Source: Candidatus Dojkabacteria bacterium
GTDB taxonomy: Bacteria > Patescibacteriota > Dojkabacteria > J137
Length of the DNA: 64,000 nucleotides
Assembly: GCA_040006935.1 (NCBI GenBank)
Contig: JBDTVZ010000001.1
Span: 18,218 to 82,217 of the forward strand
Direction of reading: 5' to 3'
The notes under the pieces are model-generated. The model had not been told where the DNA came from, did not search any database, and saw nothing but the letters and a program-made list of their open reading frames with translations. The first letter of the stretch is position 1, and each line of letters begins with the position of its first letter. The translations under genes and the position numbers were made by a program. This document shows, piece by piece, positions 31,501 through 63,543 of the stretch.

Positions 31501-33941
31501 CTCAAATCCTTGAAACAATAATAGGCTTTAAGATCGAAGGTTTAGATCTAGCTAAGAACTTTGTTGTATTTGGAATGATAATAAACTTTGCAAATAACTT
31601 ACGCGAATTAAAGAACAAAAGGTCTAAAGACTCTCAAGAAGAAATAAATATTGCTATAACTGAACTGCAGAATAAAATAAATAGAATTAAATCTGGCGAA
31701 TTAACAGAAGAAGAAATGCAATTTGAAATGTCTAATGAAAATGTATTGAAGATTTTAATGCACATGACCTCCGGAACTTTACCCAAAGAATATCTAGTAT
31801 TTACAATATTGATGTTGATTACTTCTGGTGTTGAAATTGCTGGAGTTAGAAACGTTTTAAAACTTGATCAAATTATAAAAAACCAAAGAGGAGATGATAT
31901 TGGAGTTCCGTATTTAAAGTATAGAGAGGAAATACTTGAAGTAAAAGCCACAGGAAATGTGATGGCACTACAAGAAGTTATTATAAAAAACGTAAGCATG
32001 TTAATCAACTACATGAGAAATTTTCATAATTACGAGGATTACTCCGAAGATTTTTTAGTAATGTGTAAATTATTGAACCTTAAAGAAGGTGAGTTCTCTA
32101 CCAACTGTTTTGGTATAGGGCTAATTTATCAAGCCATACTTGACTTAATGATTGGTGATATTTGTGAGATTAATTATGCAACTCTCCATCACGAATTAGG
32201 TAATGATATTGAAGACTGGTTTAAAAATCTGGGTGAAATAGTTATGGCGGGTCATGCTGTATTCATTATTAAACTTCCACTTATAGATGGAGAGGAAAAT
32301 AAATATATCATTGGAGATCCACTAAGTGTGATTAACAGCTTAGCTCAAAAAAATAAAAGAAAACCTTTAGACAAACATCATAATTGCATGGTTGTAAAGG
32401 AGTCCGAACTTATGCTAGACAATGAGATTAATTCTGTTCTTGAAAATACAAAATTCGTTACTATAGATCCTAATAAAAAAATCCGAATAGTTCAGAAAGA
32501 TAATAAAGAAATACAAATGAAGATAGATCCTAATGATGTTTATCAAGTATATAAAGACAGGAATTCTATTTTAACCTATGCAATGATTAGTTCCTTCAGA
32601 GATTTAAATGGCTACTTAACAACCATAGCGCCAGATGAAGGTGAAGTATTAATGGATATGATTACAGATTCAAAATATAAAGGAGATAGAAACAAAGCAT
32701 TTGAGAAGTATATGCTTTTATATAATAGATATTCAGGATTTGAATATAGATCTACAAACTCTAATCAAGTAATAGCATCGAATATAATATTATTAAATTT
32801 TGCTCTTGAAAATGATTATTATATTGAAGCTTTGTTCCTGGCCAATGTAAATAAAATAAAATTAGCCAAACTATATCCAGACAAAGACGACTACGATGAA
32901 TCTTTAATTTTCGATACGCAAAAAGCATTTATACTTACAAAAATAGCCAATCTCGATGAGACAGAAATCCTAAAATTAATTGAAGATAAAAAATATCTTT
33001 TAAGAAAAGAAGATATTACACTTATCTGGGAAAATGTCTCCTTTATAAATTTAACATTGCGTTTATTTAATGAAACAAAAGAGGATCAAAAAAGAACTCT
33101 AAAATTACTATCTTCTGAGTCACTTTACTATTTGATTTTTGATCCACTAAGATACAATAATATCCAGGAAATGAAAGACTTATGTAAAGAGATATTAAAA
33201 GTTGCTTTGGAAAATGATTATTTACCATATTCAGCTTATATTATAGAAAAACTAGTTAAGTTAAGTCCCGAAGACGAAACTCTGAAATTAGTAGAAGATA
33301 AGATTATAAAATTCATTGCTAAAACCGATAACTATATAATACTTACACAACTAAATCCACATTTAATTTTCTCAAAATTTATAGACAAAATTCATAAAGT
33401 TTTAGAAGTTAGTTTTGAGATACCAACTATCCAATCAATTTTAAACATATTGAATGGAGTGAAGGATGATAAAGTTATTGATGATCAATACGAAAGTCTT
33501 CACAAAGTATTAAGTAGTAATCACACTGCACTTGATAGAGCTGCTTATCGACATAAAGTTGAAGAAGAAAAAAGAATAGTTGCAGCTGTAGAGGCAAACA
33601 CTCATAGAATTGAGGAGATAAATAATCAAGTAAAAACTGAAGTGAGGTCAGGAGGGCAATCCTACCAATCCCTGCATCAAGAAGAAAAACCCCTTGAACT
33701 TGGAGACAACTATATAAAAATAACTGAAGAGGCTGTTTTCGGATCGATTGATCTACTCGTGAGTAAATATGGTGAACTCTCAGGAGACATAATGGCTCTA
33801 TTTCTTCGAGGAGCTGATGAAACAGTAATTCGTCTAGCAGAGAATAATTTGAGGAAGAAAGGAATATTACTTCCATCACCCGAAAATGCAGCTAAAAGGT
33901 TACAAGGACAAAATCTCCCATTGTTACAATCGAATTCTTAA
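28506..33941 (+). CDS. giant protein (1811 aa), no hydrophobic segments recognised
   Basis: Uninterrupted 5.4 kb ORF; its stop overlaps the stop of the convergent VirB4-like gene by 4 nt. Confidence 0.8.
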   Translation: MQYDEIKQTQNNNLTEIQRERELKAAQLRAQNASTILNKKINRSSFSNSAKEVKPFDYLERLECSMTLDRVDSERNGTNINTQIINCDYSTEIDSKGREIIKMTVPHRLDFLALNLNPGSVFIFDRSNYRLLSIEQKDQQKVVNSVEVWPHVEILSIDKILFTFSDLLNKEKIVAFESLENNVMRLKKGPFDGFPNKIYFQKYNLENPIFIEDYDEIKKAYHAPGQGSFIDVDYNMAIKAFNQASNILETEDRTADFQYPEVLRLFSKLKIAFAKDLIPNENPHDTVFELRLRNELNIDGVHIYAGAVMKIDVNDPEFFTIKYPPQNGVQIEFIEINGTKLYAPGEILCRNTSEDLQITSINGGQLENMGSERVIKIIKANNGFIGLVANDEVIKFTKDHKVLTLLSNVDPSVQILISDIMKNRYFLHDIYSDNYLEGAIELVSNHTGSLATIIFEDEQPGNIIIPNYPNIHPSLHGLAIGQFDRLILDKKGEFAIFGVATERYDMHFRGVWYERIERIFINFRTGEVRFRCDSYFEGGKRYGQTKYSENTYIIVDNLGLKQTGDGIFSEVENNVPKGDDYKDHISRTLKIKEIRIGDMRQLNEDRIDITASFDSIVLNNQENPTLHNWIYAQAPFGSIVNFNSKNSIIESIEVPYDTYIKSGGIRASLGSSFKISGIRKVLFEEDSQNFPLDVKELKGEITITLNNKIYRAKDISVNSLGLKLDKFPLITWEVIYNGATELPDELLVENNSVNIPTKNEILYLANRLTVQVNNRKPEDDFDLEQNVNSLIGLTRWLYESANKLGGPFNLAEWVTIYKPLLYYYYNDPEAVILLIMGFIPNSNGNIDPIDYMFLYATYLEIFKQRYPEVESELILLLSSLNPDLKFIYKNEIKDIISNFEILEDENKQHFLDELDSINMDTPSHIPVPVSHSQVEGFKADQFSIEKGFLKFNEEPKAIDLLQRIGNLRELSTSSELDKQIEIIKENGSRIDMNVVGQISQILETIIGFKIEGLDLAKNFVVFGMIINFANNLRELKNKRSKDSQEEINIAITELQNKINRIKSGELTEEEMQFEMSNENVLKILMHMTSGTLPKEYLVFTILMLITSGVEIAGVRNVLKLDQIIKNQRGDDIGVPYLKYREEILEVKATGNVMALQEVIIKNVSMLINYMRNFHNYEDYSEDFLVMCKLLNLKEGEFSTNCFGIGLIYQAILDLMIGDICEINYATLHHELGNDIEDWFKNLGEIVMAGHAVFIIKLPLIDGEENKYIIGDPLSVINSLAQKNKRKPLDKHHNCMVVKESELMLDNEINSVLENTKFVTIDPNKKIRIVQKDNKEIQMKIDPNDVYQVYKDRNSILTYAMISSFRDLNGYLTTIAPDEGEVLMDMITDSKYKGDRNKAFEKYMLLYNRYSGFEYRSTNSNQVIASNIILLNFALENDYYIEALFLANVNKIKLAKLYPDKDDYDESLIFDTQKAFILTKIANLDETEILKLIEDKKYLLRKEDITLIWENVSFINLTLRLFNETKEDQKRTLKLLSSESLYYLIFDPLRYNNIQEMKDLCKEILKVALENDYLPYSAYIIEKLVKLSPEDETLKLVEDKIIKFIAKTDNYIILTQLNPHLIFSKFIDKIHKVLEVSFEIPTIQSILNILNGVKDDKVIDDQYESLHKVLSSNHTALDRAAYRHKVEEEKRIVAAVEANTHRIEEINNQVKTEVRSGGQSYQSLHQEEKPLELGDNYIKITEEAVFGSIDLLVSKYGELSGDIMALFLRGADETVIRLAENNLRKKGILLPSPENAAKRLQGQNLPLLQSNS

Positions 33942-35911
33942 ACTTGCGGTGGAACAGCTGAAACTTCTGTAGTAACAGGTTGTTCAATAGGCTGTGCTTG
34001 AGGAGTTACATTATCTGTTGGTAGAACTGTTCCTGGTTGTTCTAATGGTGGAGCCGAAGAAATATCTAACTGATCTCCTTCTTCATTTTCTACTTTCTGT
34101 TGAAGTAACTCATTAGGGTTTGTAGTTATCAAATTATGCTCATTTTGACTTGCAACAATTTGTATAGCAACATGATTAGCCCCAGCAAAAAATAATCCTT
34201 GTCCAATTCCTGCAGACATTAAAAAAGACTTTTCACCATCTGTAAGATAGAATACTTTCTTTAATTTATCTATCGCAGCTGGTGCTTGCTTCAATAATAT
34301 CTGCATGGATGAGTTATTAATTATTGCTTTACCATAATCTGAAGCTAAGAAGTCATCAACATCTTGTGTAATAGTTGTTAGACCTAATGCATATTTTCTA
34401 GCTCTCTTAGCAATTGAGTATACAAACTTGGCAGCATCTTCGTATTGCATCATAATCCAAGCTTCATCAATTATTAATAATCTTTTCCTCTTATCTCTTT
34501 TAATCTTGGTCCAAATGTAATCAAGCATTACATACATGGCCATTGGTCTTAAATCATCAGCTAAATCACGAATTGAAAATACTGTAAATGTATTGTGAAT
34601 GTTAACCGTGGATTTCCTATCAAACACACCAGATGCGGAACCTTTTAAATATTTTTCTAATCTACGAGCCATTGAATGGGATTCATCTTCCGACATTGCA
34701 TTTAAAATCTTATACAAATCTTCTAACAAAGGAGCTTCGTTTGAATGTGTTGATGGATCGGGTGTGATACCTTTTTCTTTGTACGTTAATATTAAAGCTC
34801 TATCTAAAATTGCTGCTTCCTCTGCAGTTACTGTTCCACCCAACATCATTCTAATTAATCCAGAGAGAGTTAAAATTTTAAATCGGAGTTCATCTTCATC
34901 AGCGTTAAATATCCCAGATAATTCAAAGGGATTCAATTTCTGAGCACCGTCTTGCGAGAATGATATATATTCTCCACCAACTGCATCACATAATCTATCA
35001 AATTCTTTTTCTGGGTCTATAATAATAATGTCAATTCCAAGCATTAAGGACCTCACAGCTTCCAATTTAACTGCATAGGATTTACCAGCTCCGGATGTAG
35101 CCAAAACGACTGAGTTAGCATTAGGAAGTGAAAATCTATCGAAAATAACTAAAGAATTATTATGAAGATTAACCCCATATAAAACTCCTTTATCCATTGT
35201 TAACTCACTACTGACGAATGGGAAAGTTGTAGCAATGGCAGTAGTATCCAAGTTTCTGGTCATATTTATTTTATCAAGACCATATGGAATTGTGCTTTGG
35301 AAACATTCTTCTTGTTGAAGTGTAGCAACTTTAATAATAATTCCAATCGTTGCCATTGTGCTCTCCAGATTCTTTGAAATTTTATCTAACTCTTCCATAG
35401 TATCTGCATGCAATGTTACGTACAAGGCATATTGGAAGAATTTTTCGTTCCCAGCGGCAAGCTGTTCTTGCAAAGTTAATGCATCTTTAAGTTGTACTGC
35501 AACAATAGGATCTCCTTGTCTACCTGCTTCAATTTCAATATTTATTGTTGCCTGAAACTCTGCAATTTTTCTTTTTAAGATTTTTAATATTTCACCAGTT
35601 TCAAAAGGATAATAATAAGTGCTGATGTCTACGGGATATTCAAAGTTAATTAATGGTTCTAACCAACTAGGAGAAACAACACTAGGAAAGCCGATAGCAA
35701 AATATGATCTAAAATACTTATTCCCTATTATTAAATTACTGAAGTTAACCTCAATGGCACTTGGTGCAATAATGTCTTTAACATCAATTAATCCTTGAGC
35801 AAATTTCTGAATAGATTGGTTCTCTCGAGCCAAAGCAGCAGCTTCTTGAGGGTTTATAGGTTTTGTACCTTTTTTAGGTTTTGCGTCTGGTATTAATCCG
35901 AATAAAGCCAT
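33938..35911 (-). CDS. VirB4/TrbE/CagE-like type IV secretion ATPase (C-terminal 657 aa)
   Basis: Walker A LATSGAGKSYAV, Walker B LLIIDEAW; the overall VirB4-family arrangement; a C-terminal ~60 aa Pro/Gln-rich tail. Confidence 0.85.
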   Translation of the reverse strand: MALFGLIPDAKPKKGTKPINPQEAAALARENQSIQKFAQGLIDVKDIIAPSAIEVNFSNLIIGNKYFRSYFAIGFPSVVSPSWLEPLINFEYPVDISTYYYPFETGEILKILKRKIAEFQATINIEIEAGRQGDPIVAVQLKDALTLQEQLAAGNEKFFQYALYVTLHADTMEELDKISKNLESTMATIGIIIKVATLQQEECFQSTIPYGLDKINMTRNLDTTAIATTFPFVSSELTMDKGVLYGVNLHNNSLVIFDRFSLPNANSVVLATSGAGKSYAVKLEAVRSLMLGIDIIIIDPEKEFDRLCDAVGGEYISFSQDGAQKLNPFELSGIFNADEDELRFKILTLSGLIRMMLGGTVTAEEAAILDRALILTYKEKGITPDPSTHSNEAPLLEDLYKILNAMSEDESHSMARRLEKYLKGSASGVFDRKSTVNIHNTFTVFSIRDLADDLRPMAMYVMLDYIWTKIKRDKRKRLLIIDEAWIMMQYEDAAKFVYSIAKRARKYALGLTTITQDVDDFLASDYGKAIINNSSMQILLKQAPAAIDKLKKVFYLTDGEKSFLMSAGIGQGLFFAGANHVAIQIVASQNEHNLITTNPNELLQQKVENEEGDQLDISSAPPLEQPGTVLPTDNVTPQAQPIEQPVTTEVSAVPPQV

Positions 35912-51164: not shown

Positions 51165-51587
51165 TTACTTAATTGCTATCTTTTTAGGCATTATTTCAGG
51201 TTGTTTTGGAAGTTTAAGAGTCAATACTCCACTGTCCAGAGTAGCTTCAACACTATCTGTGTCCACTTTCCCAGGAAGGGCCACACTTCTTTTAAAACTA
51301 CCTTCTCTGTATTCTTGCATTACAAAATTATTTTCTTCTGTATTTGATTTCTCGCTCATTTTTCCCTCCAAAATAAGCATATTTTCTTGAAAAGCAATTT
51401 CAATATTTTCCTTTGTATAACCTGGAACTTGTGCAGTAACTTCAAATCTATCTGGAAGGTCTTTAATATTCACGCTTATGGATGATCCTAGATTCGGCAT
51501 TCCAACGTCACTTATAAAGTTTGACATAGAATCTTCAAAAACTCTAAACATCTCCGATGGTCTTACTAATGTTATTTTTCTAGTCAT
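51165..51587 (-). CDS. Hsp20/alpha-crystallin small heat-shock protein
   Basis: 140 aa; an alpha-crystallin domain pattern F.R...LP..VD...V.A....GVL.L..PK. Confidence 0.85.
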   Translation of the reverse strand: MTRKITLVRPSEMFRVFEDSMSNFISDVGMPNLGSSISVNIKDLPDRFEVTAQVPGYTKENIEIAFQENMLILEGKMSEKSNTEENNFVMQEYREGSFKRSVALPGKVDTDSVEATLDSGVLTLKLPKQPEIMPKKIAIK

Positions 51588-51702: not shown

Positions 51703-52110
51703 ATGACCATGGCAGAACTAAAAACAAAAGCTACAACTGTAAGCGTAGCTGACTTTATAAATTCAATAGAAGATGAAATAAAAAAGAATGATTGTAAAGA
51801 AATCTTAAAAATGATGGCAGAAGTTACAGGTGATAAAGGTAAAATGTGGGGATCAAGCATAGTTGGATTTGTTGATGTACATTTAAAATACGAAAGTGGA
51901 AGAGAGCTAGACTGGTTTAAAATTGGATTTTCTCCTAGAAAACAGAACCTGACTCTTTATGGTTTATTAAACAACTTAGGTGACTCTTCAAATTTGCTAG
52001 ATAAACTAGGAAAATACACAACAAGTAAAGGATGTTTATACATCAAAAAACTTTCGGAAGTAAATAAAGATATCTTAAAAGAAATCATAAAGAAGGCTTT
52101 AACAGTATAG
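51703..52110 (+). CDS. DUF1801/YdhG-like protein
   Basis: 135 aa; weak resemblance only. Confidence 0.45.
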   Translation: MTMAELKTKATTVSVADFINSIEDEIKKNDCKEILKMMAEVTGDKGKMWGSSIVGFVDVHLKYESGRELDWFKIGFSPRKQNLTLYGLLNNLGDSSNLLDKLGKYTTSKGCLYIKKLSEVNKDILKEIIKKALTV

Positions 52111-52200
52111 CTTTATAAGAATTAAATGTTTTACTAATTTGTTATAATAATTTCCTAAAAATATCTAGTCATAATTTTTACGATGTGACATAATTGTCAC

Positions 52201-53220
52201 ATGGACAAAAATGAACAAAAAAATATCAAATATTTCCAGTTAGCTTCTATAATATTTAGTATTATCTTTTTCATATTAGTTTTTCAAGCAATTTACCCGC
52301 ACTACATATTTGGTGTTTGTGACTATACTCGGTGGTTGACAATTCCGATGGTTCTTTTTGCCATACTAAGTTTCTTAACATTTTTACCTAACTTTATTAT
52401 CCGATTTAAACAAAGATCACAAACTAAATTATTTTTAGTTAATCTAATCTTCATTTTGCTTACAGTTTCTATACTGTTTATTTCAATTTTAAGTAACCTT
52501 TGTGGTGGTTCTACAGGTATAACTGGAGCCACTGGTTTAAACGGGACAATTGGAGTATCAGGGAATATTGGTGGAACGGGTGAACAAGGAAAACCAGGAT
52601 CAACTGGATCAAAAGGGATTTCTGGGCAAACTGGTACCCAGGGTAACTCCGGTGAAGCAGGTGCAGTTGGAGCTGGTGGAACACCTGGATCTGTAGGATC
52701 TACTGGAAGCAATGGGATACCCGGAACAAACGGTTTAGTTGGAGGTTTAGGGTTACAAGGGCCACCAGGTCCACAGGGAGATCCAGGAGCTGCTGGTACT
52801 CCAGGAACAAGTGCTAATATTAACTATGGGTACATTTATAATACTGGTGCCCAATCAGTAGCAATTGATGCTCCTATTCTTTTCAGCTCGTCCGGACCAA
52901 TGGTTGGAGTCACACATACTGCTGGAACATCTACAATTACTATTACTAATGCTGGAGTATATTCAATTAATTTTTCAGTATCAGGGGCAGAAGCTAATCA
53001 ATTTACTGTATATATAAATGGCACACCATCTCCTACAACTACTTATGGCTCAGCAGCTGGTATCCAACAGAATAATGGACAAGCAATTCTTATACTCGGT
53101 GCTGGTGATGTTTTAACTGTTGTAAATCATTCTTCTGCAGCTGCTGTAACTCTTACAGCTCTAGTTGGAGGGACACAATCAACAGTAAGTGCTTCAGTAC
53201 TTATTAGACGATTAGATTAA
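52201..53220 (+). CDS. collagen-like triple-helix repeat protein with a BclA/C1q-like C-terminal domain
   Basis: 339 aa; three N-terminal TM helices, ~100 residues of G-X-Y repeats (GATGLNGTIGVSGNIGGTGEQGKPGSTG...GPPGPQGDPGAAGTPG), then a ~130-aa beta-rich domain (ITITNAGVYSINFSVS...TVYINGTP...AILILGAGDVLTVVN) typical of BclA/TNF-like trimerisation domains. Confidence 0.8.
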   Translation: MDKNEQKNIKYFQLASIIFSIIFFILVFQAIYPHYIFGVCDYTRWLTIPMVLFAILSFLTFLPNFIIRFKQRSQTKLFLVNLIFILLTVSILFISILSNLCGGSTGITGATGLNGTIGVSGNIGGTGEQGKPGSTGSKGISGQTGTQGNSGEAGAVGAGGTPGSVGSTGSNGIPGTNGLVGGLGLQGPPGPQGDPGAAGTPGTSANINYGYIYNTGAQSVAIDAPILFSSSGPMVGVTHTAGTSTITITNAGVYSINFSVSGAEANQFTVYINGTPSPTTTYGSAAGIQQNNGQAILILGAGDVLTVVNHSSAAAVTLTALVGGTQSTVSASVLIRRLD

Positions 53221-53630
53221 GGTATAGGTTTAGTATACTTTTCAATTGCTACTTCTAAATGTTTCTTAATCCAAGGTTGTAGCTCTTCTTTCGCAAGATC
53301 TTGGAAAGCAACCCATTTATAACCTTCATGTTCATAAGATAATTTAACCTCACCGCTCTTATAGTCAAGAATATAAAAAAGTGCTAAAGCTGGCTCACCT
53401 TTTCTCTCAAAAATTGTATTCGACATTAAAGCAGAGTTTTCAACTTCCAAGCCAGTTTCCTCTTGAACTTCTCTTAAAACAGCATCGTCAGGAAGCTCAT
53501 TATCATCAACTAAACCACCCGGTAAATCCCAGGTTAAAGGAAAAGTAGGAGCAGTGGACCCACGTTTAACAAGAAGGATTTTGCCTTCTTTTAAAATTAA
53601 AGCTTTTACACCAAGTAGAAATTTGTTCAT
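53217..53630 (-). CDS. Nudix hydrolase
   Basis: 137 aa; Nudix box GGLVDDNELPDDAVLREVQEETGL. Confidence 0.85.
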   Translation of the reverse strand: MNKFLLGVKALILKEGKILLVKRGSTAPTFPLTWDLPGGLVDDNELPDDAVLREVQEETGLEVENSALMSNTIFERKGEPALALFYILDYKSGEVKLSYEHEGYKWVAFQDLAKEELQPWIKKHLEVAIEKYTKPIP

Positions 53631-54725: not shown

Positions 54726-54969
54726 AGCAGGTAGGGGGAATCGAACCCCCCTCATCAGTTTGCCTGCCCGCCTAAGGTAAAGTCAGGTTGCAATAAAGAA
54801 TGTGAATACAGCGGGTAGAGGGAATCGAACCCTCCTCTTCAGTTTGGAAAACTGACATAATAACCGATATACTATACCCGCTGTATTCACACTAATTATT
54901 TTTAATACCAGTTAAGTTTACTATGGCAGGCGGGGGAAACTGGCATAATAACCGATATACTATACCTGC
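54726..54969 (-). tRNA. tRNA-Gly(CCC)-like gene split in the anticodon loop: 5' exon 54969-54934, 173-nt insert 54933-54761, 3' exon 54760-54726 (minus strand)
   Basis: Minus-strand halves: GCAGGTA-TA-GTAT-ATCGGTTA-TTAT-G-CCAGT-TTCCC | insert | AA-ACTGA-TGAG-GGGGG-TTCGATT-CCCCC-TACCTGC. The acceptor pairs perfectly (GCAGGTA/TACCTGC). The discriminator is U. The T-arm is canonical. The anticodon stem has a C27.A43 mismatch. Confidence 0.5.
54810..54881 (-). tRNA. tRNA-Gly(UCC), complete, inside the insert of the split tRNA
   Basis: Minus strand GCGGGTA-TA-GTAT-ATCGGTTA-TTAT-G-TCAGT-TTTCCAA-ACTGA-AGAG-GAGGG-TTCGATT-CCCTC-TACCCGC-T. The anticodon is UCC and the discriminator is U73, as expected for Gly. 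The D-arm is identical to that of the outer tRNA. Leader TGTGAATACA and trailer TGTATTCACA form a perfect 10-bp extension of the acceptor helix. Confidence 0.8.
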
Positions 54970-55588
54970 ATTAATTACTCCACAATTATAGCAAGTAACT
55001 CAAAATTTTCAAGAATAACAATAATGGCTATGCTACTCATAAACCGACATTTTGAAAAGGCCGTGCCACCTCCTATTCAGTTTTCCGTCAAACTTTAGCG
55101 ACACATCGAATTATCGTTACCAGGTAAGCACTTAGATGTATTCTGATGATTGACAAAAGTATATTTCTGTTATATAATTAAATAGTTAAAAATCAATTAC
55201 AGATCGCGTGTTTACAAGACGGGATGGTCAAGGGAAAGTACGTGAGTCCCAAAACAACCACAAAACTCCCCAACCCTAGTTAATAGTTAAAAATTAATAG
55301 TTAAAAGAAGGAAATATCTTCTTGTTCAATTTCAATAAATGGTTATTAATAGTGCACTTAACTCTTCACTATTAAATCTTAACTATTTATGGGCATTGAA
55401 CCATCTTATTTTCGTAAGAATTTAAGACTCATGCTTAATTCTACTTTATTGTAGAAGAACCTTAAAAACTCAAAAGAAGAAATTCTTTTGGGTTTCGTGA
55501 TTAACAATACACATGCTAACGCTGTGTGTTAATTGCAAAAACCCAATAGAAAGCTTAATAATTCGATTTAACTCTAGTTTACAACTGG

Positions 55589-55625
55589 ACGCATATTGCC
55601 TATAAAATTTGTAGGTAATATGCGT
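55589..55625. promoter_or_regulatory. 37-bp near-perfect palindrome upstream of the island ORF (candidate operator)
   Basis: ACGCATATTGCCTA-TAAAATTT-GTAGGTAATATGCGT: 9-bp perfect arms plus a 4/5 extension, about 80 nt upstream of the ATG at 55707. Confidence 0.35.
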
Positions 55626-55706
55626 ATTCAGTTGTAACTAGGGTGCACGTAGATGCAACTGAAGAAAGAAGTCCCGATACGCTAGGGCAATATAGGAGGG
55701 TCTTAA

Positions 55707-56841: not shown

Positions 56842-58764
56842 ATGTTTAGATACAGAATACTAACAACTCTCATACAAATCGCAGTACTTTCTCTAATTCT
56901 TTTTTTAGGGTTTACTAATCCAAATTATTCTACAAATTACTTTATTATTGGCTACATTTGGCTAATCCTATTCACTTTCCCAAGCTTACTTTCTAAAATT
57001 ATTTTTAATAAGTCTTATTTTAGTTTAACTTCCGCACTTTGCTTTCTTTATTATCCAATTACTTATCTATTTGTATTTTTTGTAGCAAAGGTCTTTGCAA
57101 TTGATATAAATATATTAATACTTACATTGAGTATATTAGTAGTTCTACTTTGGAACCTTGCATTAATTAGTATTACTTTTACTCAAAAGGCTCATGAAAC
57201 CAGGCAAATAATCACGTTTGCACTTGGAGTACTAATTTTGAGTGTAACGTTATTTGGATTTTTAACAATTGCAGGTAGGTCTGTAAATTCAGTAGTAGCA
57301 AACGATTACCTTGTACACAAAACAGTTGTCTTCCCCATGGCTAATAGCGCAGAAACACTTTGCTTTCTACCAAGCCAGTGTTCAAATTTATTTCTATTAG
57401 ATTCCTATACAAGCTTTTACCATACTTTCATAATAATTCCTCTTGGAGGATTTAAATTTGATCCTATAATCTCAAGTTATATCTTAGACATTGTTTTTTC
57501 ATCTTTTATTATAATTTTAAGCTACATAACAGCCAGAAAGTTTGGCCTAAAAGTCAATTATGCAATTTTTGCAGGATTAATTTCACTAGTGGTTTTCGAT
57601 TCTGGAGCATTTACCGCCACAATATTCATTCCTCAAACTATGGCCTTTATGCTTACATTGTTTATTATTAACTCTCAAAAGCTAAATTTAAAATCACTCC
57701 TAATATCACTTATAGTGCTAATTCCAATACATTTTATAATGGGAATTTATTGTTTTGGAATTATGCTGCTTTACTATTTAATTGTAGAAAAAGAAATTTT
57801 AGAAAAATTTGAAATTAGAAAAAGATTACTAATAATACTGTCACTTTCAGCTACTTTATTAGTTTTATTGCTCAGTATTTCAGGCTTTGGAATAGAAAAG
57901 ATCTTTCAAGCAGAAGAAATTAAAAAACTTGGGTTTGCTACAAACTACTACTTTCCTGACAATTTAAAATTTCTATTCGAAATGGTCGGTTTAGGGAGTT
58001 TTATTTTTATAGCATGTCTTATTTATTACTATATCAAGGGAAAAGAAGATAAATATAATAATTTCCTAATAACAATAATTACTTGTGAACTGGTAGCATT
58101 TTTACTTGCACCAATATATGCAAATAAGTTTTTAATTGGCATTGGTGTATTTTTAGCAATTTTTATAATCAAAATTATTGCTAACCTAAAACAAAATGAA
58201 ATTAATAAATTATTTTATTGTTTTTATACCCTAATTTTAATCGCAATAAGTTTTGTTACACAATATAGATTCTTTCTTCTATTTTATACTCAGAGTAATG
58301 GTGAAACTTCGGCAATAGTTCAGAAAGACTTACCTATGGTTAACTTTGTAAAAAATAGCAAATTAAATTGCTTTTATGTTTCAGACCCACAAACACAACT
58401 CACAATCAGTGCTTTAGGCGATAAAATAACAGCAAGTGGGCACTATATGAGCTTAGACTCTCGAAGAGTATTATTTGAATTAATAAAATCTCCAAACGAT
58501 TTAAGGCTAAGTAAATTATATTCATTAGAAGAGTTCAAAGGAGTACGAACAGATATCTGCTTTGTTTACTCTGCAAGGTTAAAGGAATACGTAGCAAATG
58601 ATAACCAAAACTGGACGTTTAATATCTACAACTATATTGTAGATTATCAAAGAGAGATTGACCCAACAGACAATATTGAGAGGTATATGGTAAGTAAAAA
58701 TATCCACAGTGTCTACAATGACAAATACTATTCAATATACTTACTTCCTAAAAGTAGTAACTAA
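56842..58764 (+). CDS. polytopic membrane protein, probably a GT-C-type (ArnT/PMT-like) glycosyltransferase or polymerase
   Basis: 640 aa; at least 12 TM helices then a soluble C-terminal domain; next to GT4, GT2 (polyprenyl-phosphate sugar synthase-like) and a flippase. Confidence 0.55.
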   Translation: MFRYRILTTLIQIAVLSLILFLGFTNPNYSTNYFIIGYIWLILFTFPSLLSKIIFNKSYFSLTSALCFLYYPITYLFVFFVAKVFAIDINILILTLSILVVLLWNLALISITFTQKAHETRQIITFALGVLILSVTLFGFLTIAGRSVNSVVANDYLVHKTVVFPMANSAETLCFLPSQCSNLFLLDSYTSFYHTFIIIPLGGFKFDPIISSYILDIVFSSFIIILSYITARKFGLKVNYAIFAGLISLVVFDSGAFTATIFIPQTMAFMLTLFIINSQKLNLKSLLISLIVLIPIHFIMGIYCFGIMLLYYLIVEKEILEKFEIRKRLLIILSLSATLLVLLLSISGFGIEKIFQAEEIKKLGFATNYYFPDNLKFLFEMVGLGSFIFIACLIYYYIKGKEDKYNNFLITIITCELVAFLLAPIYANKFLIGIGVFLAIFIIKIIANLKQNEINKLFYCFYTLILIAISFVTQYRFFLLFYTQSNGETSAIVQKDLPMVNFVKNSKLNCFYVSDPQTQLTISALGDKITASGHYMSLDSRRVLFELIKSPNDLRLSKLYSLEEFKGVRTDICFVYSARLKEYVANDNQNWTFNIYNYIVDYQREIDPTDNIERYMVSKNIHSVYNDKYYSIYLLPKSSN

Positions 58765-59880
58765 CGTATAGTATTGCTCAAAGAGAACTTTATCTGAAAG
58801 CTTTTCAAAAGCCTTAGTCGAAACTTCTTGGTTTAATTTAAAGTTAGTTTTCTCACAAAGTTTAATTGCCTCAGAAACTTTATTAACTAAATCAACAATA
58901 TTTTTTCTTTCAAATACCAAATTATCAATTCCCAAAGTTTTAGCCATTTCAATATTACTTTCAGCATTAGAAAACACTCCTACATTGCCTAAAGCACTAG
59001 CTTCTTGATTAGCAAGAGAAAACCCCTCACTTAGTGAAGAATTGATGAAAATAGAGCTTGTAGAGAGCAAACTAAATACTTCCTCTTGCGGTAACAACCG
59101 ATTCTGAACTGATACATTGGAAGGGTAACTATAATCACCTGGTTTTATTTCAAAATCCCCTTTACCTATTAACTGAAACTTCCAATTTGGATATTTTGTA
59201 CTTAAAATTTCATATGCTTTTGCTACAGTTTCAGGATCCTTCACGATGGATATTCTAGATATGAAAGATATTGTTTTCTCTTTCTTTGTAATATCGTATT
59301 TACTGACTTTATCGCTATTAAAACCTGTATTTATCACAATAACTCTATCTTTAATCTTTGGATGAAGGTTAATTAATATGTTCTTAGTATATTCCGAAAT
59401 TGCAACGACAGCTTTTGCTTTAAATACTATGCTTCCAAATACAAATTTATCTAAAAAAGCCATCAATTTATTTGCACCTCCAGATTTGAAGATATTTGGC
59501 TGAAAACCACTATCAATATAGATGTAATTTATTCTCATTAATACACAAAGTACAAAAGCAATATAACTTGTAGTGAAATGCCTACCATTAATAATTACAA
59601 CTTTATTCTTAGTTTTAAGAAAAAACTTTAAAACAGTAAAAAAGAACTTTAAAGTTACAAATGGATATAACCCTCCAAAAAGCATCTTAGCCCTAATTGA
59701 CATTTTTAAAATCCCATTCTCTTGCCTGGTGTAATTTTCACTTGAACAAAAAATAGCAGTAGTTTTAATATGTGGCTTAGATACTAAAAAACTTAGTAAA
59801 TTATATGCAAAGGTTTCAACACCACCTACATGAGGAAGAAAAAGGTGGGAAATTGAGATTACATTTATTTCTTGTTCCAT
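58741..59880 (-). CDS. glycosyltransferase family 4 (GT-B)
   Basis: 379 aa; the C-terminal EGFSLANQEASALGNVGVFS motif (E.7E-like). Confidence 0.8.
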   Translation of the reverse strand: MEQEINVISISHLFLPHVGGVETFAYNLLSFLVSKPHIKTTAIFCSSENYTRQENGILKMSIRAKMLFGGLYPFVTLKFFFTVLKFFLKTKNKVVIINGRHFTTSYIAFVLCVLMRINYIYIDSGFQPNIFKSGGANKLMAFLDKFVFGSIVFKAKAVVAISEYTKNILINLHPKIKDRVIVINTGFNSDKVSKYDITKKEKTISFISRISIVKDPETVAKAYEILSTKYPNWKFQLIGKGDFEIKPGDYSYPSNVSVQNRLLPQEEVFSLLSTSSIFINSSLSEGFSLANQEASALGNVGVFSNAESNIEMAKTLGIDNLVFERKNIVDLVNKVSEAIKLCEKTNFKLNQEVSTKAFEKLSDKVLFEQYYTLVTTFRK

Positions 59881-59913
59881 AACTTTGTAAAGTAATACAA
59901 TGATATTGTATAC

Positions 59914-60612
59914 TTATGCCTTCAAAGATGCGAATCTATTAGAGATTAACCAGCCTAAGTGACTTAAACCAGTTTTTAGATATTGTTGTTTAGAGTTACC
60001 TTTAGATCTTCTGTTTTGTCTAATTGAATACTCACCCATTTTCAAATCTTTATTTTTTGCAACGTTAATTTTTATTTGAGGGCTTAAGTTCCAATCTCCT
60101 TGAGTTAAATTAAGTTGAGATTTAACCTCTTTTCTAATAAACCACATACCGGAGAGTATGTCGTTAAAGTACTTTCCATAAAGTATAAAGGCAGTGATAT
60201 TAAGCACATAAACTCCTAACTTTTGTATAGCACTAATTTTAGAACCTTTAGCTGGAGGAAGTCTATGGCAATACATAAAGTCGTACTTAGAATCTATAAA
60301 TTTATCCAACATTACGGTTAAATTATCTAACGGGTGTTCTGCATCTCCGTCTATAGAAAGAATTATATCTCCCGTAGCTTTTTCTATACCAGTCATATGG
60401 GCAAAACCATAACCTATTCCATTTAACTCTCTGTCATCTTTGAATGCTTTAAATCCAAGCGATAAGGCTTTCTCATAGGTATCATCTGTAGATCTATTGC
60501 TTACCACAATAATCTCATCTACAAAACTAGGTATAGAAGATTTAATCGTTTCCAGATTATTAGATTCATTCCTACAAGGAATATAGATTGTTACTTTGTT
60601 ATTTCTATACAT
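59914..60612 (-). CDS. glycosyltransferase family 2, polyprenyl-phosphate sugar synthase (DPM1/ArnC-like)
   Basis: 232 aa; IYIPCRNE...VVSNRSTDDT...DGDAEHP (DXD region). Confidence 0.85.
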   Translation of the reverse strand: MYRNNKVTIYIPCRNESNNLETIKSSIPSFVDEIIVVSNRSTDDTYEKALSLGFKAFKDDRELNGIGYGFAHMTGIEKATGDIILSIDGDAEHPLDNLTVMLDKFIDSKYDFMYCHRLPPAKGSKISAIQKLGVYVLNITAFILYGKYFNDILSGMWFIRKEVKSQLNLTQGDWNLSPQIKINVAKNKDLKMGEYSIRQNRRSKGNSKQQYLKTGLSHLGWLISNRFASLKA

Positions 60613-60718
60613 ATGATGCTATTAGTATATACTAATTATATCATAAATAGAGCAAAAACTCAATTTTGAGGAGACCAACAATGCTTTACTGTAGATCCAA
60701 TCGAAGAGATTACTAGAA

Positions 60719-60997
60719 TTATTGTACGCTGCTGACTTCCAGTCCCTTATCTTCTAAACACAATTGATAAAGGTAAGTAGAAGGTTCCGTTCTAGTCACT
60801 CCATTGGCAGTATTAGTTACTGTTGCACTCTTAAAACAGCCGTCAATTGCATCGTTTTTTGTCTTTTGTACTTCAAGAGAGTACGTATCTTGAGCTATTT
60901 TTAGGTAATCTGCTGACCTTATGAATGCAACATAAGCAAGGATACCTATAGCTATAATGAATGCGATTCCTAGTAGAAAATTTATAAATACCTTCAT
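60719..60997 (-). CDS. small membrane-anchored protein
   Basis: 92 aa; N-terminal TM; two Cys. Confidence 0.5.
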   Translation of the reverse strand: MKVFINFLLGIAFIIAIGILAYVAFIRSADYLKIAQDTYSLEVQKTKNDAIDGCFKSATVTNTANGVTRTEPSTYLYQLCLEDKGLEVSSVQ

Positions 60998-61109
60998 AGT
61001 GATAACTTAATAAATATATGATGATTATATATTAAGGATGAATTTATCTCAAATAAAAAGGCGACAATTTATATTGCCGCCTTTTAAATACTTTAGAAGT
61101 TCTGTAAAC

Positions 61110-61388
61110 TTACTTTTTAAGTTTGTTCTTAATATATTTACCGTTTAGTATAAGTACTAAGCCCGCATTGAATGCTGCTCCAATAGCTATTACATCAAAT
61201 GCTCCTATCTGACCGGGATTATCATCTTGAAAAATAATACCAGTATTTGCGCATGTAGTAATACCATATGCTCCAACTGTACAAGTTTGACCACCAGCTG
61301 CTGAAACAGTATTTATATTACTAAATACAAATGTAAATAGGAACATTGATATTGCTACTATTATTAATTTTATTATATTTTTTGTCAT
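61110..61388 (-). CDS. small secreted Cys-containing protein with a C-terminal hydrophobic segment and basic tail (possible sortase substrate or pilin-like)
   Basis: 92 aa; signal peptide ending ...NTVSAAG; C-terminus AIGAAFNAGLVLILNGKYIKNKLKK resembles a cell-wall sorting signal but has no LPXTG. Confidence 0.5.
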   Translation of the reverse strand: MTKNIIKLIIVAISMFLFTFVFSNINTVSAAGGQTCTVGAYGITTCANTGIIFQDDNPGQIGAFDVIAIGAAFNAGLVLILNGKYIKNKLKK

Positions 61389-61456
61389 ATTATTTTTATA
61401 TAAAACTATTGTTTTAATATATAAGCATTATACACTCAATATACCAATTTGTCAAG

Positions 61457-62134
61457 TTATCTAATCAAAGTGGCATAGACAATTATCCTTTCTGGTGAAT
61501 AATAATCTATACATGTGTACATTATTAAGTCTGCTAATTTTGAGACATGATTAGAAGTCTCAATTGCATTAACCTGATACCTATATTGTTTACCATTCCA
61601 ATTTATTGTGACTATTTCTCCACCTTTTAATTGATCGAATTCCGTGAATAAGTTGGCATTTCTCCAATCCCAAGATATGTTATTTTCACCCCATCTATGA
61701 GCTGCGAGAACAATAGGTAGCTCATTATTGTCTGGAGTACCATAATTCGGATCTCTCCAAACACCTGCAGCTAAAGCAGCCTCTTGGTTTGTAGATTCGT
61801 AGATTGTTGTATTTATTTTGATTCCGCTTACTTGTACAGTAGCACCTGTAGTAGTTACCGTATTCCCTACGACAAACTGTAATGGTTTTACCTTAGTTTC
61901 ATTAACAACTGTAGCTGTAAATGGATCTTTAAAGGTATATTTTGGAGTAGGTTTTACATCTGATTGTGCAAAAATAGCTGTTGATAGGATTTTATCTTCT
62001 TTTTGAGCCTCAAAAACATTAGTTTCAGCTTTAGGTGCAAAATTGATAAAAGACAAGAAAGCTATCGGGATTATCATCAGAATAATTCCGATCAAAATAT
62101 TTATATTGGCAAAGGTTTTTAGCACTTTTTTCAT
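61457..62134 (-). CDS. sortase-family transpeptidase
   Basis: 225 aa; N-terminal TM; catalytic His in LAAHR, Cys in LIMYTCID (TLxTC-like), and a C-terminal Arg (RIIVYATLIR). Confidence 0.75.
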   Translation of the reverse strand: MKKVLKTFANINILIGIILMIIPIAFLSFINFAPKAETNVFEAQKEDKILSTAIFAQSDVKPTPKYTFKDPFTATVVNETKVKPLQFVVGNTVTTTGATVQVSGIKINTTIYESTNQEAALAAGVWRDPNYGTPDNNELPIVLAAHRWGENNISWDWRNANLFTEFDQLKGGEIVTINWNGKQYRYQVNAIETSNHVSKLADLIMYTCIDYYSPERIIVYATLIR

Positions 62135-62215
62135 ATACCAATTATATCACAAAACGAAGTGTTTTACGAGGCATCAGGATTGTGGATCATGCTAAGAGTG
62201 ATGTGAGAAGAAGTT

Positions 62216-62288
62216 CCCTCTCCTTTCAAGGAGAGGGCTAGGGTGAGGTCATACCGCCCCAAAACCATGACATACATCTGGGCGGTCC
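62216..62288 (+). repeat. GC-rich two-hairpin intergenic repeat, copy C
   Basis: CCCTCTCC-TTTCAA-GGAGAGGG-CTA-GGGTGAGGTCATACCGCC-loop-GGGCGGTCC; hairpin 2 is identical to copy A. Confidence 0.8.
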
Positions 62289-62313
62289 ATATTTAGATTT
62301 GCTTATTGATTGT

Positions 62314-63543
62314 TTACCGCCTTAACTCTAAATCTCTCAAACTAAATCTTAAGTTTAGTATATTCAAGAATAAGAAAAGTATATTAGCTAGAAGTAACAA
62401 AATCGGAAGTAATGAAATCCCAAATATATTTATTAAAAGTACTGAAAGCACTAGGAACGAAATACTTTGAATTAAAGCAGCATTTCTATATCTATTTTCG
62501 AAACCTAAAGCCATTAAAGCCGATAATATAGGTGAAGTAACAATGTAGATCAAAACACCCCCAAGAATAGGGTAAAAGTACTGTAAGCCATTATCTGCAA
62601 TTTCCTGGTTATAGACAATTCTTAGGGCTAACCCAGCTAGAGGAATACTTAAAAGGAAGATTGCGACACAGAATGCAGATAATATTTTTATATACCTAAA
62701 CATCGACTCAACAAGCTCTTTCATTTTACCCTGCGCAACTAAGTGACTAAATTCCGGTAAGAGTTTCGTTTGTAATATTACGGATAGCACTATTGGTACA
62801 GTTGCCAAAGTACTTACAGATTTATAAATTCCGTTTTCATAATTACCAGCATAGTTGGTCACAAGTATTGAATCCCATTGTCCCATAATCACATAGGCCA
62901 TTATAGAAATTAATACATTTGCTGCAAAAATAACAAAGCGCTTATCGTATTTAGCTTTTGAAAAGTCTATTAGCTTATCTTTAAATAACTTTTGAAGAGG
63001 AATTATTGAGAATAAGAGCCAAGCAAAGGCTCTACTTAATAGGAAAGCATTTATTACATCTGTGATTTTCAAGAAGTATAGAACAAAAGTAAGTCCAATA
63101 AATATTAATGAAGAAATTGTAAAGTAGAGACTGGTTCGAAAATCGTCTCTAAGTCCATTAAAAATGAGAATAAATACGTTGCTCGCAGAAAATATTAGTA
63201 TTAAAGCCATTTGCCAACCATAACCGAAGGAGATTCTATAACCAGTAGCCCAATCAAGTAGTAGAAACAAAACTCCACCAATTAAAACTAGCACAATCTC
63301 TGCATAAACCGAGAACGAAATTCTCTCAACTCTGTCTGTATTTTGAGCAACAAACTTTTGAGCAGCTTCTGGTAAGCCAAAATCCGTTAAAACTCCAACA
63401 ATAGTAATCAAAGCAATAAAGTAATTTAATAATCCTATCTCGTCTGTACGAGCAAATTTACTCAATACAAAAAGAATAATTACGGGACTTGTGCTTGATA
63501 GTACTCGAGAGATTCCGGGAAGAACAGATTTTATAAATTTCAT
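62314..63543 (-). CDS. MOP-superfamily polysaccharide flippase (Wzx-like)
   Basis: 409 aa; ~12 TM helices; length and topology typical of polysaccharide biosynthesis transporters. Confidence 0.7.
   Translation of the reverse strand: MKFIKSVLPGISRVLSSTSPVIILFVLSKFARTDEIGLLNYFIALITIVGVLTDFGLPEAAQKFVAQNTDRVERISFSVYAEIVLVLIGGVLFLLLDWATGYRISFGYGWQMALILIFSASNVFILIFNGLRDDFRTSLYFTISSLIFIGLTFVLYFLKITDVINAFLLSRAFAWLLFSIIPLQKLFKDKLIDFSKAKYDKRFVIFAANVLISIMAYVIMGQWDSILVTNYAGNYENGIYKSVSTLATVPIVLSVILQTKLLPEFSHLVAQGKMKELVESMFRYIKILSAFCVAIFLLSIPLAGLALRIVYNQEIADNGLQYFYPILGGVLIYIVTSPILSALMALGFENRYRNAALIQSISFLVLSVLLINIFGISLLPILLLLANILFLFLNILNLRFSLRDLELRR

Follow-up and report, generated by a model that had tools for sequence, protein, structure and literature searches.

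A collagen-like protein with a BclA_C head and a predicted three-helix membrane anchor in a Candidatus Dojkabacteria genome

In a window of 64,000 nt from a Candidatus Dojkabacteria contig (the whole stretch of DNA analysed here), a gene of host-like codon composition encodes a protein of 339 aa in which three conserved modules follow one another: a hydrophobic three-helix N-terminus, a Gly-X-Y tract and a C-terminal domain of 135 aa with the fold of BclA heads. The protein is probably a membrane-rooted trimeric collagen fibre carrying a BclA_C knob, and adhesion or aggregation is the most likely function of such a fibre. It belongs to the broad family of collagen + BclA_C proteins, and this sequence family is itself well known. 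New here are the three-helix foot and the occurrence in Dojkabacteria. A Dojkabacteria genome hereby gains a collagen + BclA_C fibre whose codon signature is native and in which a membrane foot replaces the spore or virion dock. The design of a collagen stalk with a BclA/C1q-like head recurs and is highly mobile; it is found on Bacillus spores and in prophages, protist symbionts and giant viruses. To our knowledge, the surface structures and attachment factors of bacteria belonging to the candidate phyla radiation (CPR) are poorly known, and no paper on collagen-like proteins in Patescibacteria turned up in the literature searched. The protein described here is a concrete and easily expressed candidate adhesin.

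The protein is an exact match to MEP7103144.1 at NCBI ('MAG: collagen-like protein [Candidatus Dojkabacteria bacterium]'), which is encoded on a contig of 516,739 bp and for which PGAP called the same ATG as the start codon. It has been deposited already and its name is correct. The coordinates of the gene, its modules and its direct neighbours are compiled in Table 1.

Table 1 Positions of the collagen-like gene, its modules and adjacent features within the window
Feature	Position	Strand	Residues	Basis or remark
Hsp20	51165-51587	-		neighbour
DUF1801	51703-52110	+		neighbour
Imperfect palindrome/hairpin over the start codon, with a perfect core of 8 bp (AUGUGACA/UGUCACAU)	52175-52210	+		inverted repeat
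CDS, collagen-like protein	52201-53220	+	339 aa + stop	ORF list, ATG start
Predicted TM helix 1	52240-52302	+	aa 14-34	hydropathy peak 2.48
Predicted TM helix 2	52333-52398	+	aa 45-66	hydropathy peak 2.08
Predicted TM helix 3	52429-52500	+	aa 77-100	hydropathy peak 2.82
Cys101-Gly102 junction, membrane to stalk	52501-52506	+	aa 101-102	alignment with the metagenome relative P0002
Collagen-like stalk, 34 uninterrupted G-X-Y triplets	52507-52812	+	aa 103-204	Gly-register scan; Pfam Collagen
BclA_C / C1q-TNF-like jelly-roll head	52813-53217	+	aa 205-339	Pfam, PDB match, AlphaFold, Foldseek
Nudix, convergent, 4-nt overlap with the collagen-like gene	53217-53630	-		neighbour

The C-terminal domain is all-beta and rich in Gly, Ser, Thr, Ala and Val. 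An earlier note on this DNA, made from the sequence alone, had read it as a BclA/C1q-like beta-sandwich, and this reading was borne out by profile, sequence and structure comparisons. The Pfam model BclA_C (PF18573) matched aa 211-323 with 42.9 bits, above its curated cut-off of 38 (E 5.5e-11). When the C-terminal 136 aa were compared with all PDB sequences by phmmer, one strong match was obtained, entry 9H38 (E 2.2e-16, aa 207-335). The protein in this entry is F-BclA, represented by its C-terminal domain; F-BclA forms the collagen-like tip fibrillum on the F-type endospore appendage (F-ENA) of B. thuringiensis, and the domain crystallised as a trimer whose fold is a TNF-like jelly roll (PMC12357932). 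9H38 was deposited under the molecule name 'Flagellar hook-length control protein FliK'. For aa 200-339, an AlphaFold2 model computed from an alignment of 78 sequences was all-beta as well (pLDDT 91.6, pTM 0.86). Foldseek searches against the PDB matched the domain to 9H38 (TM 0.90, rmsd 1.6 Å, E 1.5e-13), to BclA (1WCK, 2R6Q and 3TYJ, TM 0.80-0.81), to ExsFA/BxpB (TM about 0.75), to C1q heads (1PK6, TM 0.75), to the NC1 domain of collagen X (TM 0.75) and to the TNF ligand EDA-A1 (1RJ7, TM 0.72, E 7e-6). The values for C1q and EDA-A1 rule out the first refuting case named in the note, a domain with no structural similarity to C1q/TNF folds. The C1q model of Pfam (PF00386) gave no match up to E 1, hence the C1q likeness exists at the level of the fold only, and membership of the C1q family by sequence was rejected. 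The trimeric crystal structure of 9H38, the closest solved relative, suggests that this head forms trimers, too.

Upstream of the head, the note had described about 100 residues of uninterrupted Gly-X-Y triplets. The register scan confirmed an unbroken tract, which is the only run of at least 8 triplets in the six frames of the window; a run of this length has a chance expectation of about 5e-40 at ~7% Gly. The Pfam model Collagen (PF01391) reached 51.3 bits, its cut-off being 27.2 (E 1e-13). The stalk of C1q has ~27 triplets and that of EDA 19, and with 34 triplets the tract is longer than these two, near to that of BclA and inside the range that functional collagen stalks cover. For BclA, 40 triplets are given in the F-ENA paper (PMC12357932), and the second refuting case of the note, a tract too short for a triple helix, is ruled out as well. 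If it forms a triple helix, the stalk would extend over ~29 nm (102 residues x 0.286 nm); the F-ENA paper uses 2.8 Å per collagen residue (PMC12357932).

The X and Y positions of the stalk consist of 19% Thr and 15% Ser, together 34%, of 12% Pro and of 7% charged residues. This Thr/Ser-rich and Pro-poor composition matches that of the Firmicute-type collagens, which are Thr-rich and Pro-poor and which hydration networks are thought to stabilise (PMC8968730). Given the low shares of Pro and of charged residues, the stability of the helix may depend on the head and on glycosylation. Ser and Thr account for 22.5% of the residues in the stalk and for 23.7% in the head, and many of them could be O-glycosylated.

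The region 52500-52810 had been singled out as locally GC-rich, and GC indeed reaches 0.507 in 52500-52799 compared to 0.322 for the window. Along the collagen tract, GC1, GC2 and GC3 are 0.62, 0.73 and 0.18, respectively, while GC3 is 0.13 in the head and about 0.22-0.26 in the neighbouring genes. The Gly codons of the tract are GGA, GGT and GGG, as in the rest of the window. Because the excess GC is restricted to codon positions 1 and 2, the bump is a coding effect, and a recent horizontal acquisition was rejected as its source. The codon composition is host-like and the gene is native. DNA-level repeats were found in the tract neither by Tandem Repeats Finder nor by an exact-seed repeat search, which makes a variation of the repeat number by slipped-strand events unlikely.

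For the N-terminal region, the three transmembrane helices proposed before were recovered as three Kyte-Doolittle peaks >1.6 in 19-residue windows (aa 14-32, 48-66 and 79-97). A full-length AlphaFold model, computed from an alignment of 2 sequences and of low confidence (pLDDT 44.5), placed helices at aa 3-37, 42-67 and 72-100 and was counted as weak support for three helices only. Of the segments between and around the helices, aa 1-13 ahead of helix 1 hold three Lys and are predicted to be cytoplasmic, loop 1 between helices 1 and 2 (aa 35-44) contains Cys40 together with a single Lys or Arg and is predicted to face outward, and loop 2 ahead of helix 3 (IRFKQRSQTK) has four Lys or Arg and is predicted to be cytoplasmic again. 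Lys and Arg are absent from aa 101-130 after helix 3. By the positive-inside rule, this distribution places the N-terminus inside, loop 1 outside and loop 2 inside, with stalk and head outside of the cell. Hydropathy and the positive-inside rule together thus support an N-in/C-out topology.

Several other ways of attachment were considered and rejected. A lipoprotein signal was discarded because there is no lipobox ahead of Cys101, and a sortase substrate because LPXTG is absent, although a sortase gene is located 8 kb away. A holin-like origin of the three-helix region was rejected since none of the PHROG matches is restricted to the N-terminal region; only a weak match to the tail-fibre PHROG 17587 (1.1e-6, aa 38-160) reaches into it. 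For a class I holin, the predicted topology is the opposite. Scans of the protein with NCBIfam and Pfam returned no match to an exosporium-leader family, and the Pfam scan found no SLH domain within the 339 aa.

The anchor is rare. An exhaustive HMMER search with aa 1-105 against 1.84 billion cluster representatives retrieved only the protein itself (P0001) and one further protein, P0002, and both were also recovered by a local phmmer search with the N-terminal region. In a scan of metagenome contigs with the anchor alignment, none of 600 pattern matches was confirmed, to which the filtering of hydrophobic sequence by tblastn may contribute. A close relative of the full protein was not detected in a scan of genome contigs. 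All but one of 120 homologues align to stalk and head only, over at most 72% of the query.

The exception is P0002, an independent metagenome protein of 449 aa that is present on one JGI and one Logan contig with a GC content of 0.35-0.37. Its N-terminus is 52% identical to that of the Dojkabacteria protein over 79 aa, its head is 63% identical, and its collagen tract keeps the Gly register in the alignment. It differs by two DUF7151 modules that are inserted between collagen tracts, and a C-x-G motif precedes each tract. Cys40 and Cys101, the only two cysteines of the 339-aa protein, are both invariant. Cys101 sits where helix 3 ends on the outer side, two residues ahead of the first Gly-X-Y triplet, and corresponds to the cysteine of these C-x-G motifs; it is conceivable that it acts as an inter-chain disulfide staple. 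There was no synteny with the P0002 contig. Between the two genes, pN is 0.31 in the anchor, 0.37 in the stalk and 0.24 in the head, compared with pS values of 0.78, 0.62 and 0.60 at synonymous sites that are saturated. As pN is below pS in each of them, all three modules are under purifying selection. With P0002 as an independent case, sequence comparison indicates that the fusion of anchor, stalk and head is real and conserved; the comparative support for the anchor is thin since only one other protein carries it. The three-helix foot is the only unusual feature of the protein, and it is lineage-restricted and rare.

The combination of stalk and head is found far more widely. A scan of the GTDB species representatives for heads, built on an alignment of 13 sequences, yielded 205 confirmed loci. 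Heads 55-67% identical to the one studied here come from Dependentiae, Bdellovibrionales, Actinomycetes, Acidimicrobiia, Planctomycetota, Verrucomicrobiota and Ktedonobacteraceae and, within the Bacillota, from many Bacillus, Paenibacillus and related genera. These uncharacterised proteins share the order of stalk and head, whereas they carry no or one hydrophobic segment in the N-terminal part, compared to three here: among 71 complete GTDB genes, 54 (mainly from Bacillota) have none before the stalk, 17 have one and not a single gene has three. Signal peptides, single anchors, an SLH domain (in homologue P0021) and DUF7151 are the N-terminal modules met across the family, and because these modules vary, the new anchor fits the known modular variation.

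Among the characterised proteins, F-BclA shares a collagen stalk followed by a BclA_C head, both proteins are rich in Ser and Thr, and the two heads are 31-33% identical in the Foldseek alignment. F-BclA differs in its N-terminal hook, which docks on the spore appendage, and in a stalk of ~700 residues, whereas the protein studied here is anchored by three membrane helices, has a stalk of 102 residues and originates from a CPR metagenome-assembled genome. We assume that the source bacterium does not sporulate. BclA, the exosporium nap glycoprotein of B. anthracis and B. cereus, is likewise built from an N-terminal anchor, then a G-X-Y stalk and finally a BclA_C head, with heads that are ~20% identical. 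Its exosporium leader, the peptide docking to ExsFA/BxpB, was not found here, and its stalk is made up of near-identical GPT repeats and differs in length between strains, in contrast to a tract devoid of DNA repeats. A BclA orthologue was rejected since the exosporium leader is absent and three hydrophobic helices stand in its place.

A membrane anchor, a short collagen stalk and a trimeric head of the TNF/C1q fold follow one another in ectodysplasin A (EDA) in the same order. EDA is a single-pass type II protein that is shed by furin; its sequence identity to the protein is ~10%, and nothing points to a common descent of the whole architecture. The likeness to such membrane-bound collagenous TNF/C1q-fold proteins is one of analogy and not of membership. 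Finally, streptococcal Scl1/Scl2 and the Legionella Lcl protein have surface collagen-like stalks with a part in adhesion, and the NCBIfam models of such adhesins matched the stalk weakly, with scores far below their cut-offs (49 vs 400 and 43 vs 325 bits for Scl1/Scl2, NF038330/NF038329, and 44 vs 500 for a third model). The polarity of the Scl proteins is opposite, as their head is N-terminal and their wall anchor lies at the C-terminus with an LPXTG motif, which this protein lacks.

From these modules the following path can be proposed. The three N-terminal helices would fix the chain in the cytoplasmic membrane so that its N-terminus stays inside, and helix 3 would act as a signal-anchor, leading to the export of everything past residue 100. 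Outside of the cell, three chains would associate via their BclA_C jelly-roll domains, and the head trimer would nucleate the zipping of the 34 triplets in C-to-N direction into a collagen triple helix, with Cys101 possibly stapling the three chains at the membrane. The trimeric knob would be displayed past the cell wall of the Dojkabacteria cell and would most likely mediate adhesion to, or aggregation with, other cells or surfaces. Trimerisation and triple-helix formation are suggested here by comparison with the BclA/C1q-type collagens, and the adhesive role by analogy to BclA, L-BclA/F-BclA, the Clp proteins of Bacillus and the BclA-like collagens of Pasteuria. The tip fibrilla of F-BclA/L-BclA promote spore clustering (PMC12357932), and bacterial collagen-like proteins including ClpA-D of Bacillus are linked to biofilm formation and adhesion (PMC4319854). 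The structural interpretation given in the earlier note is supported, and the part in cell-cell attachment that it suggested is one that we infer.

The gene is preceded by pyrG, a hypothetical gene, Hsp20 on the minus strand and DUF1801 on the plus strand, and is followed by Nudix on the minus strand, a hypothetical gene, a gene for a 23S-rRNA-IVP four-helix-bundle protein and tRNA-Gly(TCC). Hence, the stress/Nudix neighbourhood stands as it had been described, with Hsp20 and Nudix flanking the gene. A functional link to these two neighbours was not found, nor is an adhesion or envelope operon obvious around the gene. An envelope cluster begins 3.6 kb downstream and reaches to 10 kb, mostly on the other strand, and comprises genes for a 640-aa polytopic membrane protein, a GT4 and a GT2 glycosyltransferase, a sortase and a Wzx-like flippase. 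The glycosyltransferases and the sortase nearest to the collagen-like gene are 5.5-9 kb away on the other strand. This cluster is compatible with a glycosylation of the Ser/Thr-rich stalk and head and is not evidence for it.

The likeness to phage tail fibres that had been noticed in the C-terminal domain is substantiated by PHROG 30509 ('collagen like minor tail'), which matched aa 134-339 at 5e-51 over profile positions 52-254 of 254; the stalk is also matched by many tail-fibre PHROGs. In addition, IMG/VR contains 68 contigs with heads 50-62% identical, metagenome-assembled giant-virus genomes among them; a Bodo saltans virus protein reaches 59% identity and TM 0.92, Klosneuvirus proteins match as well, and the head domain is carried by two temperate Bacillus phages. 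These matches would fit a phage-derived receptor-binding fibre, with the module being a minor tail protein or a tail fibre left by a prophage or retained as a moron. Nevertheless, we consider this extremely improbable. The better-matching Bacillus phage has its gene in an accessory region by a recombinase and a transposase, outside of the tail module. No phage genes flank the Dojkabacteria gene between pyrG and the 23S-IVP protein, and none of the unannotated neighbours tested matched a PHROG. Its synonymous-site GC equals that of the host, and a membrane anchor of three helices is no module for attachment to a virion. A phage tail protein was rejected by this context of housekeeping neighbours and host-like GC3. 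The same fold and anchor might instead have a structural role, as a spacer between membrane and wall or S-layer, as a matrix scaffold or as an ectodomain that is shed as in EDA, with the knob binding to the cell's own envelope or matrix. A rigid stalk of ~29 nm on a membrane foot would suit a ruler or tether, and the envelope-glycan and sortase cluster downstream, the S-layer-homology domain of homologue P0021 and the Foldseek match to EDA-A1 speak for it, too. Yet cleavage sites or wall-binding motifs were not seen, LPXTG, lipobox and SLH all being absent, and the characterised relatives work in adhesion or aggregation, which leaves a structural role unlikely.

That the Gly-X-Y tract is just a flexible Gly/Ser/Thr-rich linker that forms no triple helix in vivo appears very unlikely to us. 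The low Pro and charge contents would agree with it, a prolyl hydroxylase is not evident nearby, and the monomer AlphaFold model leaves the tract unstructured, but a triple helix cannot appear in a monomer model. Moreover, a linker needs neither the perfect Gly register over 34 triplets, which is in register in P0002, nor the purifying selection. The composition matches that of Thr-rich bacterial collagens (PMC8968730), and the closest solved relative of the head is a crystallographic trimer. We therefore favour the membrane-rooted, adhesive collagen fibre over the phage-derived, structural and linker readings. A possible, if doubtful, extension of the adhesive fibre is that it constitutes the host-attachment organelle of an episymbiotic CPR bacterium, in which the ~30 nm stalk would present a C1q/TNF-like knob recognising the surface of the partner cell. 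If true, the three-helix foot would represent an adaptation by which the fibre anchors, or even signals, across the CPR envelope, and EDA and other membrane-bound collagenous TNF ligands would have a bacterial counterpart in this protein.

At the 5′ end of the gene, no Shine-Dalgarno sequence was found before the ATG. A promoter-like site is located at 52166-52194, and its -10-like element TGaCATAAT ends 6 nt upstream of the ATG. The inverted repeat over the start codon (Table 1) was predicted to fold as RNA with -13.9 kcal/mol (z -3.1) and may, perhaps, be a regulatory or leaderless-start feature. On the opposite strand, a Pro-rich ORF of 129 aa (52323-52712) is an antisense shadow of the collagen tract.

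The C-terminal BclA_C (C1q/TNF-like) head of the collagen-like protein (52813–53217) was compared with BFVD, IMG/VR and L003, L015 and L019, and belongs to a subfamily that retains 55–67% identity across very distant hosts. These comprise Dependentiae, Bacillota, Actinomycetota, Planctomycetota, prophages and giant viruses of protists, and the head from Bodo saltans virus shares 59% identity with that of the window protein. Such unusual conservation implies that horizontal transfer has been frequent and the constraint strong. The name "flagellar hook-length control protein FliK", under which the subfamily appears in PDB and UniProt, is a misnomer.

The three-helix anchor, in turn, was found in only one other protein, the metagenome protein P0002 (L001 413–1762), in which two DUF7151 modules alternate with collagen tracts. 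Both modules possess DxNxNxxxD-type loops and a C-x-G at the end. The end of the third hydrophobic helix in the window protein (ILSNLCGG) aligns to the DUF7151 end in P0002 (VINYVCNG), and this alignment suggests that the module was either lost from the window protein or inserted into P0002.

The start codon of the collagen-like gene lies within an imperfect palindrome. This palindrome contains a perfect 8-bp core, AUGUGACA/UGUCACAU, with the loop UAAU, and its predicted RNA fold has a free energy of −13.9 kcal/mol (z −3.1). The sequence TGaCATAAT resembles an extended −10 element and ends 6 nt upstream of the ATG, which is not preceded by a Shine-Dalgarno sequence. This region could serve as an operator, as a translational hairpin or for a leaderless start. 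At the opposite end, the collagen-like gene shares 4 nt (53217–53220) with the convergent Nudix gene, the overlap lying at the two stop codons, and no terminator-like site was found between the two genes. Further downstream, tRNA-Gly(TCC) reads GGA, the most frequent Gly codon in the collagen tract, which is probably a coincidence. The interval of ~0.8 kb between this tRNA gene and the next long ORF (54883–55706) contains neither an ORF of at least 110 aa nor an Rfam match.

Further features of the window
Feature	Position	Strand	Remark
Giant ORF, 2185 aa	20906–27463		no Pfam match
ORF, 339 aa	between the giant ORFs		no Pfam match
Giant ORF, 1811 aa	28506–33941		no Pfam match
TraG/VirB4-like P-loop ATPase	33938–35911	−	adjoins giant ORFs
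Imperfect palindrome, 16-nt arms	52175–52210		across start codon
tRNA-Gly(TCC)	54809–54882	−	1.6 kb downstream of collagen-like gene
ABI721_00365 (NCBI locus tag), 329 aa	55707–56696	+	single N-terminal hydrophobic segment
Polytopic membrane protein, 640 aa	within 56842–63543	+	no Pfam match
GT4	58741–59880	−	envelope/glycan cluster
GT2	59914–60612	−	envelope/glycan cluster
Sortase	61457–62134	−	envelope/glycan cluster
Polysacc_synt flippase	62314–63543	−	envelope/glycan cluster

ABI721_00365 is atypical in composition (GC 0.447; GC3 0.41 versus ~0.22 for its neighbours). It had no Pfam or PHROG match, and a comparison with 5.8 billion proteins returned only itself; perhaps it is an orphan surface protein that was acquired recently. 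An envelope/glycan cluster, to which the 640-aa polytopic membrane protein also belongs, occupies positions 56842–63543. Elsewhere in the window, the segment 20906–35911 may represent a type-IV-secretion-like locus or a giant surface-protein locus.
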